From an uncultured Candidatus Saccharibacteria bacterium (lineage in GTDB: Bacteria; Patescibacteriota; Minisyncoccia; Phycocordibacterales; CAYSCM01), in NCBI GenBank assembly GCA_964429815.1, contig CAYSCM010000005.1, forward strand, positions 1-10,856: DNA of 10,856 nucleotides. The letters run 5' to 3'. Both the position numbers and the translations under genes were made by a program. The notes below the pieces were generated by a model. It was given only the letters and a program-made list of their open reading frames with translations. It had not been told where the DNA came from and did not search any database. Below are positions 1,731 to 10,856 of this stretch, piece after piece (the stretch's first letter is position 1; every line of letters starts with the position of its first letter).

Positions 1731-2090
1731 TCACTCCTTCGCGAAGAGAAGATTTGCAATCTGGCGAATGACTGACTGGTGGTCGTCCTCCTGGATCTTC
1801 TCGATAAACACCGCAAGCTCGTCGAGCGTTGGGTTGTCGCCGCCAAAGTTCGGTGAGAGAGCGTTGACCTCACAGACGACGCTGAACACGAGACAGGCGG
1901 TGCGTTTGTTGCCGTCGGTGAACGGGTGATCTTTGATGAGGAAATAGATATACGCCACAGCCTTCTCTTCGATCGTGGCGTAGTTGGGTGCTCCGTAGTG
2001 GGCGCCCGTGATGTTCACGACGATAGACTCGACGATCTGCTGCGCCGAGACCGTCAGAGGGAATGAGACCAGCCCCTCCTTATGCAGCAA
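1731..2090 (-). CDS. doc: Doc (death-on-curing) toxin, Fic/Doc family kinase. Probable TTG start at 2090; the maximal ORF runs to a GTG at 2159
   Basis: Diagnostic Doc motif H-P-F-T-D-G-N-K-R (HxFx[D/N][A/G]NKR) in IKDHPFTDGNKRTA. N-terminal region IVESIVVNITGAHYG aligns to phage P1 Doc LIALHDANISRYGG. Starting at TTG gives a Doc-sized ~119-aa protein that overlaps the upstream ORF's stop by 11 nt. The GTG start at 2159 would overlap the upstream ORF by 80 nt. Confidence 0.85.
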   Translation of the reverse strand: MLHKEGLVSFPLTVSAQQIVESIVVNITGAHYGAPNYATIEEKAVAYIYFLIKDHPFTDGNKRTACLVFSVVCEVNALSPNFGGDNPTLDELAVFIEKIQEDDHQSVIRQIANLLFAKE

Positions 2091-2271
2091 CTCGTATACG
2101 AGGCAGACGCTTTTCGGCGGTACGAGTTGAAATGTTCTTTTTCCCGGTGTCGTAGTCACGAAGCGATTCTAAGACGGGCAGGTTCTTCTTGAGCTGCCCT
2201 TGTGCAACCTTCTCAAAGGATCCTTTTGCTGTTGTGCGGCGTTTGCTAGCCATACGGCGATTATACCTCAT
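2080..2271 (-). CDS. Putative antitoxin partner of Doc (not recognisably Phd/YefM-like). In-frame starts at TTG 2286, ATG 2271 and ATG 2253
   Basis: Small basic ORF immediately upstream of doc, whose TAA stop is embedded in the doc 5' region. It is placed by its position alone, which matches the toxin-antitoxin operon arrangement. Sequence …MASKRRTTAKGSFEKVAQGQLKKNLPVLESLRDYDTGKK…. Confidence 0.5.
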   Translation of the reverse strand: MRYNRRMASKRRTTAKGSFEKVAQGQLKKNLPVLESLRDYDTGKKNISTRTAEKRLPRIRVAA

Positions 2272-5447: not shown

Positions 5448-6443
5448 TTAGTCCACTACGTCGAGGATGGTCGAGTACTTGTCCGCATAGCTCTCTCCCA
5501 AATCGGGACAAACGAACGCGGCCTTGATGCTCCCATCCCTGCCGCGTAGCGCATCGAGCCTTCCTGAATCTTTCTCCTTCCGAAGAAAGTCAAGAAGTCC
5601 TACGTAGGCAAGGCCGGAACTTGGCCCTGGGCAAACGCCGAGCGCTCTGCGAAGGTCGAGGCTCGCTTGGTAGGCGCGCGAACGCTTCCCGAGCGTCATG
5701 AGGGCACCCTCGGAGATAGCGCTTCTCCAAGGGAGACGCACGAGCTCTAGGGATAGTTTGCTTTCGGCGCGAACGCCGGGCACCGGTCCCTCGTCCCCTT
5801 CCGCGCACACCACACCGACGACCTTGGTGGAAAATTCGCAAGCCCGTATGTAACGGGCAAGACCCACCACGGTGCCGCCGGTACCGACACCGGCGGCGAC
5901 CGCTGAGAGGGTTGCCTCGAAGGGGTCGAGGATCTTCGGCGCAAGGAATTTCTCGAACGCCTTCGGATTGTCGTCGTTGTCGTACTGGTCGAGGTTGAGG
6001 TATCCGGGTTCTTTGCCCTTTTCTCGCGCACGCTCGATGCAGGTAGCCTCTCCTTCACGTTCGGGAAAATCCTGGAAGCGTGCGCCGTAGAAACGCAGAA
6101 GCGCGAGCTTAGTGAGTGGTGTGTCCGAGCGCACGTAGAGCTCGACTTTGAGACCGAAGGCCGGCGCCGCGATCGCAAGCCCAAGCCCGGTGTTCCCTGA
6201 CGTACCTTCGACGATTGTATGTACGCCCTCAAGACGTCCGGCTTCATGCGCGCGAAGGAGCATGTACACCGCCGGGATGACCTTGTGCGGGAGTCCTGCC
6301 TTGTCGAACCCGAGTGCCGCAAAAATCCTGACCTGGTCCGTGATGAGTGGGTCAAACCCCGTCGGAATCCTCACCAAGGGGACGCTTCGGTTTTGGGGAT
6401 GGAGGAACTTTAAAATCCCCCCACTCCCGTTTGGCGTCTTCAT
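5448..6443 (-). CDS. PLP-dependent fold-type-II enzyme of the cysteine synthase / cystathionine beta-synthase family (CysK/CysM/SbnA-like), 331 aa from ATG 6443
   Basis: PHKVIPAVYMLLRAHEAG (PLP-Lys region). IVEGTSGNTGLGLAIAA matches the VEPTSGNTGIALA motif. QYDNDDNPKAFEKFLAPKILD matches QFxNPxNPxxHxxTTGPEI. AAGVGTGGTVVGLARYI matches the G-rich loop GVGTGGT. GGAGAG SD lies 8 nt upstream of ATG 6443. The longer ORF to 6557 would run into the panD promoter. Confidence 0.85.
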   Translation of the reverse strand: MKTPNGSGGILKFLHPQNRSVPLVRIPTGFDPLITDQVRIFAALGFDKAGLPHKVIPAVYMLLRAHEAGRLEGVHTIVEGTSGNTGLGLAIAAPAFGLKVELYVRSDTPLTKLALLRFYGARFQDFPEREGEATCIERAREKGKEPGYLNLDQYDNDDNPKAFEKFLAPKILDPFEATLSAVAAGVGTGGTVVGLARYIRACEFSTKVVGVVCAEGDEGPVPGVRAESKLSLELVRLPWRSAISEGALMTLGKRSRAYQASLDLRRALGVCPGPSSGLAYVGLLDFLRKEKDSGRLDALRGRDGSIKAAFVCPDLGESYADKYSTILDVVD

Positions 6444-6549
6444 AGTGCTCTCCGTAGTCGTTGAACGGTATGCGGCCGCGCCGCACATTCCGCCTAGAGC
6501 GTAATCCGCCCGTGCCACGCTGTCAAAGACGGTGGTATACTTTGGTGCC

Positions 6550-6927
6550 ATGCTCATAAACGTCTGTATAGCGAAGATCCATCGAGCGACTGTGACCGAT
6601 GCGGACCTCGACTACGTAGGCTCCATCACCATCGACCAAAACATCCTCGAGGCGGCCGGGCTTCGTCCTGGGCAAATGGTCCAGATAACCAATGTTAGCA
6701 ACGCCGTGCTCTGGCGGACCTACATACTCGCCGGAAAAGCCGGGAGGGGCGATATCGTTCTCAACGGCCCCCCGGCGCGCCTTTTTAAAAAAGGCGATAA
6801 GGTCATCATCCTCGGCGAGGCATATCTCGAACCCTCAGAAGTCAAAGATTCGCATCCGACCGTCGTGTTCGTCGACGAAAAAAATAAGATCATCCGCGTC
6901 GAGGAGAGCGCCTGGAAGAAGTCGTAG
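6550..6927 (+). CDS. panD: Aspartate 1-decarboxylase (pyruvoyl-dependent), PanD; alternative GTG start at 6532
   Basis: Near-full-length match to PanD: AKIHRATVTDADLDYVGSITIDQNILEAAGL…Y…GRGDIVLNGPPARLFKKGDKVIILGEAYLEPSEV…PTVVFVD. Includes catalytic K and H, the Gly-Ser self-cleavage site (VG|SITID) and the C-terminal pattern seen in Thermus-type PanD. ATG 6550 gives the canonical N-terminal length. An extended -10 at 6533-6541 suggests a near-leaderless mRNA. Confidence 0.9.
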   Translation: MLINVCIAKIHRATVTDADLDYVGSITIDQNILEAAGLRPGQMVQITNVSNAVLWRTYILAGKAGRGDIVLNGPPARLFKKGDKVIILGEAYLEPSEVKDSHPTVVFVDEKNKIIRVEESAWKKS

Positions 6928-6930
6928 GAC

Positions 6931-7542
6931 ATGTGGTGGTCACCGACCCATTGGGTGAATGTCATTTTGGCCGCTTCGGTCCCCCACCACTGGCTCATGC
7001 CGGTCTCTATCATCGCCGGCACATGGATCCTCGAAGACCTGACCACCATTCTCGTCGGCATCCTGGCCGCGGACGGACTTATCAAGATAGGAGTAGCACT
7101 CATCGCCCTTTGGATAGGCATCATCACGGGCGACTACGGCCTCTACTTCCTTGGTATGCTTGCCAAAACCCATCCGCGCATCCGGCGGTTTGTCGAACAC
7201 GAGCGGCTCCTCCCCATACGACGGCGCCTTGAGCGCAATCTGCGTGAGGTCGTCATTTCGACGCGCTTCATTCCGGGATTGCGACTCCCCACCTACGTCG
7301 CCTGCGGATTTTTCCGGATGCCGTTTTGGGAATTCGCGCAGTCGGTCGTCCTTGCAACCCTCATCTGGACCACAGGGCTCTTCGCCGTGGCGTACCTCTT
7401 CGGTCAATCGACCTCTGACTGGCTTGGTTTCTGGCGGTGGCCGATCGCGATAGGGGTGTCAGCTTTTTTCTTTTTTATGGCGAAGCGAAGAGCGAAGCGC
7501 ACTGCGTATGAAGACAACAATGAACGAACCGACCCCCGCTGA
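6931..7542 (+). CDS. DedA / SNARE-associated (VTT domain) family inner-membrane protein, 203 aa
   Basis: Multi-TM hydropathy. DedA signature …GLYFLGMLAK…STRFIPGLRLPTYVACG (R-F-IPG-R…AG). Starts 4 nt after the panD stop, so same operon. Confidence 0.85.
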   Translation: MWWSPTHWVNVILAASVPHHWLMPVSIIAGTWILEDLTTILVGILAADGLIKIGVALIALWIGIITGDYGLYFLGMLAKTHPRIRRFVEHERLLPIRRRLERNLREVVISTRFIPGLRLPTYVACGFFRMPFWEFAQSVVLATLIWTTGLFAVAYLFGQSTSDWLGFWRWPIAIGVSAFFFFMAKRRAKRTAYEDNNERTDPR

Positions 7543-8638
7543 CATAGACCGGAGATGGCATGAACTTTCGGGGCGCCTTCCCGGTGAGCCGATTTTCAGT
7601 TTTTTCGAGAATTGGCCGGGTTCCTTTTTCTACATTCCTGTCGCGGTGGCGTGGTTTTTCTACGCGCTGCGCTACCGAAGCTTCACGCTTCCGCTCCTCA
7701 GCAATCCGTCGATAGAATTCGCGGGGCTGTGCGGAGAGAGCAAGTGCGGGGTCCTCAGCCTCTTGGGATCCTCCGGAAAGGAGCGGGTAGCCTCCTACAT
7801 GCGATTTGAAAATACCACCGGGCGCGCGAGCGCGGATGAGCTCTTGGGTAGTGCCACCGCTGGCGGCCTCCGGCTCCCCTTCGTTCTCAAACCCGACATC
7901 GGACGGCGCGGCACGGGGGTGCGCATCGTGCGGACGAAGGAAGACGTCGAAGCCTACCTTGAAGCTTTTCCGCGAGGCCGCGCTCTCATCGTCCAGCGGC
8001 TTATCGAAGAAGAAGGCGAAGCGGGGGTCATGTACCTGCGCTACCCCGGCGAAGGACGGGGGAAAATCATCTCGCTTACCCTTAAGTACTTCCCTGCCGT
8101 CGTCGGCGATGGCAGAGCAAGCCTTCGGGAGCTCATTTTGCGCGATGAGCGCGCCCGCCGGCTTGCCAAGAGCTACTTCACGTACCACAAAGATTCTCTG
8201 GAAACTATCGTGCCGCGGGGGAAACGCATAAAGTTGGTTGCTGTCGGAAACCACGTGCGCGGTTCTCTCTTTCGGGATGGCCGCCCGTTCATAACGTCGG
8301 GCATGACCGACGCATTCGACAAGATCGCGCGTGAAATCCCGCATTTCCACCTTGGACGGTTTGACGTGCGCTTCGAGAAACTCTCTGACCTCGCCGTCGG
8401 AGAAAACTTCACCATCATCGAGGTAAACGGCGCCGGAAGCGAGGCGACCCACATTTGGGACCGCCGTGCGAAGCTTTTTGACTCCTATCGAACGCTCTTT
8501 GCGCATGCCAAGGCGCTCTTCGACATCGGCCTCCACTACAAACGCGAAGGCCGTAGAGCTCCCTCGTTCGGGGAAATCGCTCGGGCCTATGTCGCGGAAA
8601 AAAAACTTCTCGCTTCGTATCCCCCGCTTACGGAGTAG
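7508..8638 (+). CDS. ATP-grasp ligase (RimK / alpha-L-glutamate-ligase-like) with an N-terminal transmembrane anchor, 376 aa
   Basis: N-terminal TM helix SFFYIPVAVAWFFYAL. ATP-grasp core: LPFVLKPDIGRRGTGVRIV (K-P…G-x-G-V), ALIVQRLIEEE, and the Mg-binding IIEVNGAGSE (E-x-N motif as in RimK/Ddl). The start overlaps dedA by 35 nt. An in-frame ATG at 7520 is an alternative. Confidence 0.8.
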   Translation: MKTTMNEPTPADIDRRWHELSGRLPGEPIFSFFENWPGSFFYIPVAVAWFFYALRYRSFTLPLLSNPSIEFAGLCGESKCGVLSLLGSSGKERVASYMRFENTTGRASADELLGSATAGGLRLPFVLKPDIGRRGTGVRIVRTKEDVEAYLEAFPRGRALIVQRLIEEEGEAGVMYLRYPGEGRGKIISLTLKYFPAVVGDGRASLRELILRDERARRLAKSYFTYHKDSLETIVPRGKRIKLVAVGNHVRGSLFRDGRPFITSGMTDAFDKIAREIPHFHLGRFDVRFEKLSDLAVGENFTIIEVNGAGSEATHIWDRRAKLFDSYRTLFAHAKALFDIGLHYKREGRRAPSFGEIARAYVAEKKLLASYPPLTE

Positions 8639-10856
8639 AGAGCGTCGTTGATGACGTTGATGACGTTGATGACGTTGATGACGTTGATGACGTTTCGACT
8701 ATAACGGTGCGCGTGCTCGTCGCGGTGTTTCCCGCTGCATCGGTCGCGACGTAGTCGATAGTATGGGTGCCAGGAAGACCAGTATTGAGAGAAACTTCCA
8801 TGACAGCGACCCCATCGACGTAGGTCGTATATCCGAGGTTTTGGCTCACATTGTCGGAGACGGTGGCGCCAAGGTCGGAATACGCCTCTCCCACGTGAAT
8901 GGTGGCGGGGTTATTACCTTGTATGACGATAGTCGGCGGCGTCGAATCCAAAGAGGTTTTCGAGATACTCCCTCCCGATGATGTGCTGCTGGAACTTACG
9001 CTCAAGCTTCCTGTTGTACCTGCCGCCGCGGAGGCTGAGAGGAGTTTCACGAGGTCATCTTTCGTCACGCACACGCCGCTGACGCACAACTTTTCGACAT
9101 AGACAATGTCGGAGTGGACTTCCTTTGCGAACACGCGATCGAACACTCCGGCCGCAGCGTAGATAGCGCCGTCGAATGCATGGACGAGTAGTTGTCCGAG
9201 AGAGGAGAGCGCGTCACGAAGTTCCTGAGAGCTGTCGGAAAACGCTCCGGCTCCTGCGACGCTCGACGTTGCCGCACCGGGAGGTGCAACGAGATATGAA
9301 ATCGTCGTCGTCGGCAAAAGCGGAGCGACAAGGGCATGGAGCTCCTGGACGGCGGAGACGAGGTAGGGGGTAAAGCCCGCATAATTGAGGGCGAGCGTCC
9401 CCCAACTACTTTGATATACCAGATCGGGTGCGATCTTCTGAACTTCTTGCGCAAGAAAACCTGTGTGAGTCGGGGTTCCTGAAGCCTCGGCAAGCCAGTT
9501 ATAGGTCACGGGATTAAGGGACAAGACCGTTCCAAGTGCGGGGGCGAGCTTCTCGATATTATTTTTAAGCGTCGCATCGGACGAACAGGTAACACCGGTC
9601 GTCGGGATGATCCAACAACCGCCAGCAGCATTACCGAAGGCAGCGACGGCAGTGGCGGCGCCCACGGAAGCATTGCCAACGGAGAGAAGGGACGAGGTTG
9701 CGGTTGTTGTGCCGATACCGACACTGCCCGTGTAGTTAATCGTGATGGTCGAAGTGCTCGTCGTTGCAAAGCTATCCGAGCTCGTGGCGATGTAGAGGTT
9801 CCCGCCGTTGGAGCGTATAGACCAGTGCTTTTGGTTAGACCCTGCGCTCGGATCGGTAAGGGTAAGCTGTGGACCGGTCGAAGATGCGATTTGAAGTGCC
9901 CACTGCGGAGTCGTGGTGCCTATGCCCAAAATCCCGCTCGGGGCTATCGTAAGAGGCCCGGGGCCTGATGAGGTCGCATAGGTAGAAGGAGAGGATGTCG
10001 AGAAGTACAGAAAGCCGCCGGCATTTCTGAAGCTCCAGTGAACGTTCGTAAGGGAGGATGGGTCCGAGAGCGCAAGTTGTGCTCCGGTCGAGCTCGCAAT
10101 TTGGAGGGCCCACTGCGGTGAGGTCGTGCCGATGCCGACCTTGAGCGCTCCGGCGAGGGCGAGCGCAGTGGTATCGGTCGTCGAAGTTGCCCATTGAGTA
10201 CAGCCCGCCGCAGTGATGAGCCCATTTTTGTCCGTGCGCAGACAGGCTGTATTGGTACCCCCTAAACTTGAAAGCCAGAAATTTGTCGTTGAGGCATTCG
10301 TGCTCACAAAGTTTGTCGTGGTCGCCGAGGTGCCGGTCGCGTTCACGAAGGTGAAATTCTGGAGCGTCGTGGAGCCAGTGGCCAGAAGAGTGCTGAAGGT
10401 GCCGAGTCCCGTCGAGGTGATGTTGCCAGCGGAGAGGACGGTGGCGAAGAGATTGGTGGAAGAGGCGGTGGTTGAGAAAATGGTCGAGCTTGTGGCATTC
10501 CCCAAGGTCGTCGTGGCAAGGGTGGCGAATGAAGCGAATACGTTCGTTGAGGAAGCTGTGGTCGTAAACAACGTCGAGCTCGTGGCGTTCCCTAGTGTCG
10601 TCGTCGCCGCGTTGAGGTTGCTAGCAAAGAGATTGGTGCTGCTGGCGGTGGTCGAAAAGATGGTCGACGAGGTGGCATTCCCTAAAGTCGTGGTGGCAAG
10701 AGTGATAAAGGAAGCGAACAAGTTCGTCGAAGAGGCGGTAGTGGCAAAGAACGTCGAGCTCGTGGCATTGCCTAGAGTTGTCGTAGCCGCGTTGAGATTA
10801 CTGGCAAAGAGGTTGGTGGAGGAGGCGGTCGTTGCGAAGAAAGAGGTGCTGGTTGC
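8631..10856 (-). CDS. Large Thr/Ser/Ala-rich repetitive fibre / tailspike-like protein with a C-terminal S74 intramolecular-chaperone domain, an Ig-like (DUF5011-like) domain and a (TSS)5 tail. The 5' end (N-terminus) lies beyond the window end.
   Basis: The minus-strand frame stays open from 10856 to the TAA at 8628-8630. The apparent start at 10721 is a TTG inside a repeat, and upstream codons continue the same 30-aa repeat. 30-aa repeats ATTTLGNATSSTxFxTTASSTNLFAS… span ~10390-10856. A duplicated module IGTT(S/T)PQWALQIASSTG…W S(F/I)R(N/S)(A/N)GG(F/N)LY lies at ~9700-10140. The S74 signature CSS|DATLKNNIEKLAPALGTVLSLNPVTYNWL…GFLAQEVQKIAPDLV…GTLALNYAGFTPYLVSAVQEL (SDxxxK; cleavage Ser codon ~9579-9581) is followed by a ~160-aa chaperone body. 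PTIVIQGNNPATIHVGEAYSDLGATVSDNV…THTIDYVATDAAGNTATSTRTVIV lies at ~8694-8939. Confidence 0.85.
8647..8691. repeat. Perfect 9-bp x5 tandem repeat (gttgatgac)5 encoding (TSS)5 at the C-terminus of the fibre protein
   Basis: Read directly. Partial copies flank it (8644-8646, 8692-8694). The unit length is a multiple of 3, so copy-number change keeps the frame. Confidence 0.9.
10390..10856. repeat. Imperfect ~90-bp (30-aa) tandem repeats, at least 5 copies in an alternating two-flavour (60-aa) pattern, continuing beyond the window
   Basis: Protein-level repeats (…NLNA-ATTTLGNATSSTxF-TTASSTNLFAS-FxTL-ATTTLGNATSST…). DNA copies are recognisably similar but carry synonymous and near-synonymous differences. 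Confidence 0.8.

Follow-up and report, generated by a model that had tools for sequence, protein, structure and literature searches.

Why does a perfect nine-base-pair microsatellite stand at the very end of a bacterial gene for a fibre-like surface protein, next to the point where this gene runs into its convergent neighbour? The locus lies in the window analysed here, a stretch of 10,856 nucleotides (nt) from contig CAYSCM010000005.1 of an uncultured Candidatus Saccharibacteria bacterium. The fibre-like gene is encoded on the minus strand, and its neighbour, a gene for an ATP-grasp-like ligase, on the plus strand. The initial annotation had read the repeat as a potential site of length variation in a surface-exposed tail, and the overlap of the two genes as an arrangement that could couple their expression. 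We consider it probable that the tract is the neutral product of slippage in an unconstrained protein tail, and that the overlap is a by-product of gene packing.

The perfect period-9 tract extends over positions 8646..8694 and is read on the minus strand. Tandem Repeats Finder (TRF) reports 5.4 copies with 100% matches and a score of 98, and direct reading finds five full tandem units at 8647-8691 (GTTGATGAC), with one additional base in register before them and three after; the description of the tract as a perfect (gttgatgac)5 array with partial flanking copies is thus borne out. Read on the minus strand, the unit is ACG-TCA-TCA, which encodes Thr-Ser-Ser in frame, and the protein ends in ...TRTVIV-E-(TSS)5-T-T-L-S-T-P-stop. 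Translation and Pfam agree with the claim that (TSS)5 is in frame and C-terminal in a protein that contains a Peptidase_S74 domain of the tail-fibre type, and it is also correct that a 9-bp unit can change in copy number without causing a frameshift. The array was, however, wrongly placed inside the 11-bp overlap of the two genes. It adjoins the overlap and is located wholly outside the plus-strand open reading frame (ORF): the array starts at 8646, 8 nt past the last base of the plus-strand TAG, i.e., 7 nt outside the overlap.

Within the window, no perfect tandem repeat other than the 9-bp array reaches 20 nt. By chance, 40 consecutive lag-9 matches would be expected 1.6e-20 times in 10.9 kb, and the longest lag-9 match run in 50 shuffled windows was 22 nt. 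The statement that repeats of such size are uncommon roughly holds: the fetched bacterial loci (1.37 Mb) contain eight perfect repeats with a period of 3-30, at least three copies, and a length of at least 30 nt, and the fibre-family loci (0.43 Mb) contain none. The codons of the array reveal how it was built. Every Ser codon in it is TCA (10/10), as compared to 12% of the Ser codons in the remaining fibre gene, and the chance for all Ser codons to be TCA is 0.12^10, or about 6e-10. This shows that a single 9-bp unit was duplicated at the DNA level, and that the array did not arise as a selected peptide repeat. A reading of the 9-mer as an iteron or a DnaA box was dropped, as no resemblance was seen by eye.

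The tail that carries the array, E(TSS)5TTLSTP followed by the stop codon TAA (8628..8696, minus strand), is of low complexity and predicted to be disordered. In the AlphaFold model, the predicted local distance difference test (pLDDT) score is 53 and 47 in the final two 10-residue blocks, and in the family alignment conservation ends abruptly after TRTVIV. We surveyed 53 complete tails from 80 metagenome loci of the fibre family. These tails are between 1 and 70 amino acids long (median 21), Thr, Ala, Ser, and Pro make up 67% of their residues, and not one of the 53 contains a perfect tandem DNA repeat of at least 15 nt. The tail in the window, with 22 amino acids, is near the family median in length; its content of Ser and Thr is 86%, as compared to a family maximum of 57%. 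The lack of a microsatellite in 53 homologous tails suggests that programmed length variation is not a trait of this family. In the reading that we favour, one 9-bp unit (ACG TCA TCA) would have expanded in frame, recently and in this lineage only, through replication slippage. The expansion would have occurred in an unconstrained, disordered, Ser/Thr-rich tail after the immunoglobulin (Ig)-like domain of an S74-type fibre precursor, a tail that may be at most a spacer, flexible and possibly glycosylated, with little selection on its length. The tract is too young to have decayed, or it is kept homogeneous.

The position of the tail in the protein also bears on its likely fate. The gene for the fibre-like surface protein (8628..10856, minus strand) comprises 742 codons and is open to the window end; the N-terminus of the protein lies beyond the window. 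The Peptidase_S74 intramolecular chaperone/autocleavage domain (9414..9581, minus strand) matches PF13884 over positions 1-58 of 58 with 58.2 bits (cutoff 22), and its S-D-A-T-L-K motif is located at 9564-9581 (minus strand). Ser12 and Lys17 of this domain are invariant across 21 relatives in the family alignment. The motif has the Ser-Lys spacing of the S74 pattern S-D-x-R-x-K, in which the two catalytic residues are five positions apart, and aligns with SDERLK and SDRRIK of phage fibres and with the ICA domain of MyRF. A search of the PDB with the single sequence gave no match; the profile of the 21 relatives matched phage tail fibres in their C-terminal chaperone domains (8jov, 3.5e-14, and 6f45), and also 7dc3, the ICA domain of MyRF, and 3gud, the neck appendage of GA-1. 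The likeness to the S74 domains of phage tail fibres and endosialidase and to the MyRF ICA domain lies in the Ser/Lys dyad and in these sequence and fold matches. In the AlphaFold model, the S74 and the Ig-like domain are both predicted with confidence, and Foldseek leads to 7dc3 (S74/MyRF ICA) for the former. The bacterial surface Ig-like domain (DUF5011 type; 8697..8927, minus strand) matches PF16403 with 46.5 bits (cutoff 27), has pLDDT values above 90 (93-97), and is matched by Foldseek to the Big_3 domain 2kpn and to SraP.

The stretch of about 230 residues beyond the S74 domain begins with a helical linker and a conserved Cys pair; a Ser/Thr linker then leads to the Ig-like domain and the tail. 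The relatives of this protein have the same architecture from the S74 domain through the Cys pair and the Ser/Thr linker to the Ig-like domain. With the fibre C-terminus as the query, a protein search gave relatives with at most 42% identity over most of the query, and one partial match with 66% identity over 27% of it. In a metagenome scan with the family alignment, identities over most of the query likewise did not exceed 41%, with short partial matches of up to 66%. The labelled relatives of the fibre C-terminus are Minisyncoccia/Parcubacteria; most relatives are unlabelled. The 5' part of the fibre gene contains further repeats, imperfect 90/180-bp tandem repeats with 64-80% matches at 10447-10829 (minus strand), which encode repeats of about 30 amino acids (ATTTLGNATSSTxFxTTASSTNLFAS). 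The window ends within these repeats or shortly beyond them, possibly at a point where the source assembly broke.

Proteins of the S74 family, among them endosialidase, phage fibres, and MyRF, are made as precursors that trimerise and then cleave themselves at the Ser of the motif, which releases the C-terminal part. By analogy, the fibre-like precursor should cut itself at the Ser of SDATLK. If this were the case, then the Ig-like domain and the TSS tail would be on the C-terminal fragment and not on the mature fibre; autocleavage would separate the whole C-terminal part, tail included, from the latter. A separate role of the fragment is possible, as its layout resembles that of MyRF. The claim of a surface-exposed tail is thereby weakened, since the tail is C-terminal to the conserved Ser/Lys motif and may not join the mature fibre. 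Our literature search found nothing on S74 proteins in bacteria of the Candidate Phyla Radiation (CPR), nor on the run accessions SRR12313479/80/82.

The S74 domain raises the question whether the gene belongs to a phage. A phage or prophage tail fibre was rejected, as the Pfam-assigned genes upstream on the contig are cellular: the 20 kb upstream encode MreB, PriA, RRF, def, fmt, and S30AE, and further examples are PanD and DedA. This context was judged from the upstream side of the contig; the 5' side of the gene lies beyond the window. The named relatives of the fmt protein on this contig are labelled Kaiserbacteria, Paceibacterota, and Patescibacteria group, and one is labelled only as bacterium. 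The host of the fibre gene is an ultrasmall cell of the Patescibacteria (Paceibacterota/Kaiserbacteria-like) rather than a phage. The label fibre is correct with respect to the S74 domain of the tail-fibre type; the gene itself is a chromosomal gene of the Patescibacteria and does not encode a phage tail fibre. The S74 region stands at the end of the phage proteins (PHROG profiles) but is internal to the fibre-like protein, whose gene is found among cellular housekeeping genes. Chromosomal fibres that do not belong to a phage are also known from Bdellovibrio, a bacterium living on other bacteria (MAT chimeric fibres, PMC10769870; 8ojn, 8ond, 8ol4). The family profile matches the MAT fibres weakly (E 6e-4 to 1e-2), and only in the fibre segment before S74; the likeness between the two is weak, and a role of the Patescibacteria fibre family in host recognition is putative.

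Several observations weigh against the tract being a neutral slippage product. Its lack of decay could also mean ongoing homogenisation under selection. The family tails with at least 6 amino acids end in Gln in 24/47 cases and in TTP in 8/47, and the tail in the window ends in STP; such recurrent endings hint at a function there, and at a possible importance of how long the spacer is. The combination of a variable spacer with a conserved final residue hints at a signal for processing or attachment at the C-terminus. In addition, motif conservation is the sole basis for predicting S74 cleavage, and Thr takes the place of the usual Arg in the motif (SDATLK instead of SDxRxK).

An alternative explanation is that (TSS)n is adaptive and serves as a hypermutable spacer or as a module for O-glycosylation. 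Its copy number would vary in the population and thereby tune the reach, the glycan load, or the antigenicity of a host-attachment protein, as staphylococcal SD repeats do. The tract is perfect, in frame, and part of a surface-type protein, tail length differs widely between family members, and adhesins contain in-frame Ser-rich repeats whose copy number is known to change reversibly (PMC3324548). However, the 53 family tails are without a microsatellite, the tail in question is disordered and unconserved, and it is located downstream of the predicted autocleavage site. Exact-protein look-ups returned only Logan contigs (k=31) of the same species, from the runs SRR12313479, SRR12313480, and SRR12313482, which are 100% identical to the window; the flanks of the tract are identical in three runs of one study, which is uninformative on copy number. 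On balance, we consider an adaptive module unlikely.

The tract can be compared with several known repeat systems. The SD repeats of the staphylococcal Clf/Sdr proteins are similar in that they, too, are in-frame, Ser-rich tandem DNA repeats in a surface protein that do not cause frameshifts, and in that the younger part of the array has a perfect DNA consensus (PMC3324548). The SD arrays differ in their 18-bp units, which are present in tens to hundreds of copies with documented variation, and in forming a stalk that connects the ligand-binding domain to the wall anchor (PMC3324548). In contrast, (TSS)5 has five 9-bp copies, stands at the very end of a protein, and is without an anchor motif. 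A 9-bp coding unit is shared with BclA of Bacillus anthracis, in which the number of units in (GPT)n reportedly sets the length of a surface filament component, as Sylvestre and colleagues are said to have described in 2003. The Thr-rich repeat of BclA is O-glycosylated and forms a structured collagen triple helix within the filament, whereas the TSS tract is predicted to be disordered and lies beyond the last folded domain. The tract also resembles simple-sequence contingency loci in being a perfect short tandem repeat in a surface-protein gene and in slipped-strand mispairing as the probable source of change. It does not act as a phase-variable contingency locus that is turned ON and OFF through frame or promoter spacing, because the 9-bp unit is a multiple of three, in frame, and within the coding sequence, which permits only a change in length.

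The second part of the question concerns the overlap. The convergent ORFs overlap at their 3' ends by 11 bp (8628..8638, both strands; TTACGGAGTAG). Direct reading of the ORF ends shows that the fibre stop TAA is the reverse complement of 8628-8630 and that the plus-strand stop TAG occupies 8636-8638; the interleaved stops and the size of the overlap had been described correctly. Interleaved stops imply that any two full-length mRNAs, transcribed to the stops, must overlap, and this claim stands given that both genes are transcribed to their stops. The membrane-anchored ATP-grasp-like ligase gene (7508..8638, plus strand) encodes 376 amino acids. Its homologs align up to residue 372-373 of 376, meaning that the end of this ORF, and hence the overlap, is genuine. 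A strain variant of the protein at NCBI, identical in 374/376 positions, is encoded on a contig of 96,997 nt. The last 40 nt of the coding sequence contain a run of eight A (8598-8605, plus strand), a potentially frameshift-prone homopolymer.

The ATP-grasp label holds at the level of a distant superfamily. Pfam gave no match at E<0.01, with RimK at 13.5 bits (cutoff 21), and the NCBIfam matches to cyanophycin synthetase and RimK are weak and far below the cutoffs. However, the profile of 13 homologs matched no PDB entries other than ATP-grasp ligases, along about 200 residues and with E down to ~4e-6, among them 7ta5, which is related to cyanophycin synthetase, a RimK-domain protein, cyanophycin synthase, and Ddl. 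As judged from these profile matches, the plus-strand neighbour is a distant ATP-grasp relative.

Directly upstream, and overlapping the ATP-grasp gene by 35 nt on the same strand (7508-7542), is a gene for a DedA/VTT-domain membrane protein (6931..7542, plus strand; Pfam PF09335). The best identity in the genome scan with the ATP-grasp protein was 52%, and all matches, among those listed, were from Proteobacteria. Of the 80 ATP-grasp loci that we compared, 74 contain a DedA homolog directly upstream of the ATP-grasp gene; all are proteobacterial, with 39-54% identity. The presence of the pair in a genome of the Patescibacteria suggests horizontal acquisition. The two families do not otherwise meet: a homolog of ATP-grasp, DedA, PanD, or PALP was present within 4 kb in 0/80 fibre-family loci, and a fibre homolog in 0/80 ATP-grasp loci. 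The overlap is therefore specific to this lineage, and the junction, with a module that is otherwise proteobacterial on one side and a unique adjacency to the fibre gene, looks like the border of a module of two genes that was acquired. In the scenario we favour, the overlap would have formed at this lineage-unique junction, where the fibre gene came to lie beside a DedA/ATP-grasp module of probable foreign origin.

The missing adjacency in 80 fibre-family and 80 ATP-grasp loci argues against the proposal that the overlap couples the two genes through antisense or interference effects. Convergent overlaps account for 7% of 42,055 overlaps in 338 genomes (PMC2478687). The one described here resembles the short convergent overlaps in that study in being a tail-to-tail overlap of few codons that involves non-conserved C-terminal residues, and nothing about it is distinctive. 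It looks like a by-product of tight gene packing and not like an evolved regulatory arrangement.

Nevertheless, the tract and the overlap could have a joint regulatory function, in which a hairpin without a U-tract terminates or stabilises the 3' end of the ATP-grasp mRNA and the overlap couples the convergent genes. The plus-strand RNA of 8639-8700 folds with -22.1 kcal/mol (z = -2.86), none of 200 shuffles is as stable, and the minus-strand RNA of the tract is unstructured. No canonical terminator is available: a consensus scan found no intrinsic terminator (GC-rich stem plus U-run) on either strand of 8000-9300, in line with the assertion that there is no room for terminators between the genes, and neither promoter-like sites nor inverted repeats were found near the junction. 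However, the hairpin, which begins 2 nt past the stop, is without a U-run after the stem. The unit of the array ranks 49th of 144 synonymous TSS units for folding, and 24% of the arrays made from permuted units (500) fold at least as well as the real array. As many permuted and synonymous arrays fold at least as well, the hairpin is a property of periodicity; a hairpin without a T-run, of the kind that had been proposed for inspection, is present but no better than these null arrays. In the larger context of 8590-8730 the folding is not significant (z = -0.78), and as DNA the tract forms weak hairpins in both strands. With an adjacency of the two genes that is not conserved, a regulatory function is very unlikely.

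The repeat itself is real, since Logan assemblies of two different runs carry the identical flank and 30 nt of the repeat, both ending at 8675, which makes this position a systematic assembly breakpoint for this species; the figure of five copies comes from the window's own assembly alone, as contigs assembled with k=31 are uninformative on copy number. Hence, an assembler that created or mis-sized the tract is a most improbable explanation: the k=31 assemblies do break inside the tract and a single assembly provides the five copies, but at least 3.3 copies with identical flanks occur in two independent runs, ordinary short reads easily span 49 nt, and the frame and the Ser/Thr-rich product agree with the tails of the family.

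The remainder of the window provides some context for the neighbouring genes. Upstream of the DedA/ATP-grasp pair, at 5448-6927, are a gene for an SbnA/CysK-like pyridoxal phosphate (PLP) enzyme (minus strand) and a gene for the aspartate decarboxylase PanD (plus strand). Together with the pair, these could be a small pathway for the ligation of beta-alanine or diaminopropionate; PanD is present in 1/80 of the ATP-grasp loci and PALP in 0/80. A gene of the Fic/DOC family (142 amino acids; 1731-2159, minus strand) is located among short unannotated ORFs and may belong to a toxin-antitoxin pair.

The tract is probably an ordinary coding microsatellite of small functional importance. Its practical use would be in marking strains and in alerting those who assemble genomes, as k=31 assemblies of three runs break there. 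A bolder proposal, to which we give little credence, is that (TSS)n is a hypermutable, population-variable spacer or O-glycosylation module on the Ig-like fragment of the precursor of an episymbiont's host-attachment fibre. If true, this would be the first contingency-like length-variation locus described in the phylum Patescibacteria, and it would be located in an uncharacterised family of fibres in which an internal S74 domain precedes an Ig-like domain and a tail with Gln or TTP at its end. The fibre family is more interesting than the repeat: these are chromosomal fibres of Patescibacteria that contain an internal autocleavage domain of the phage type, and they could plausibly serve in the attachment to a host, which is poorly understood in these episymbionts.

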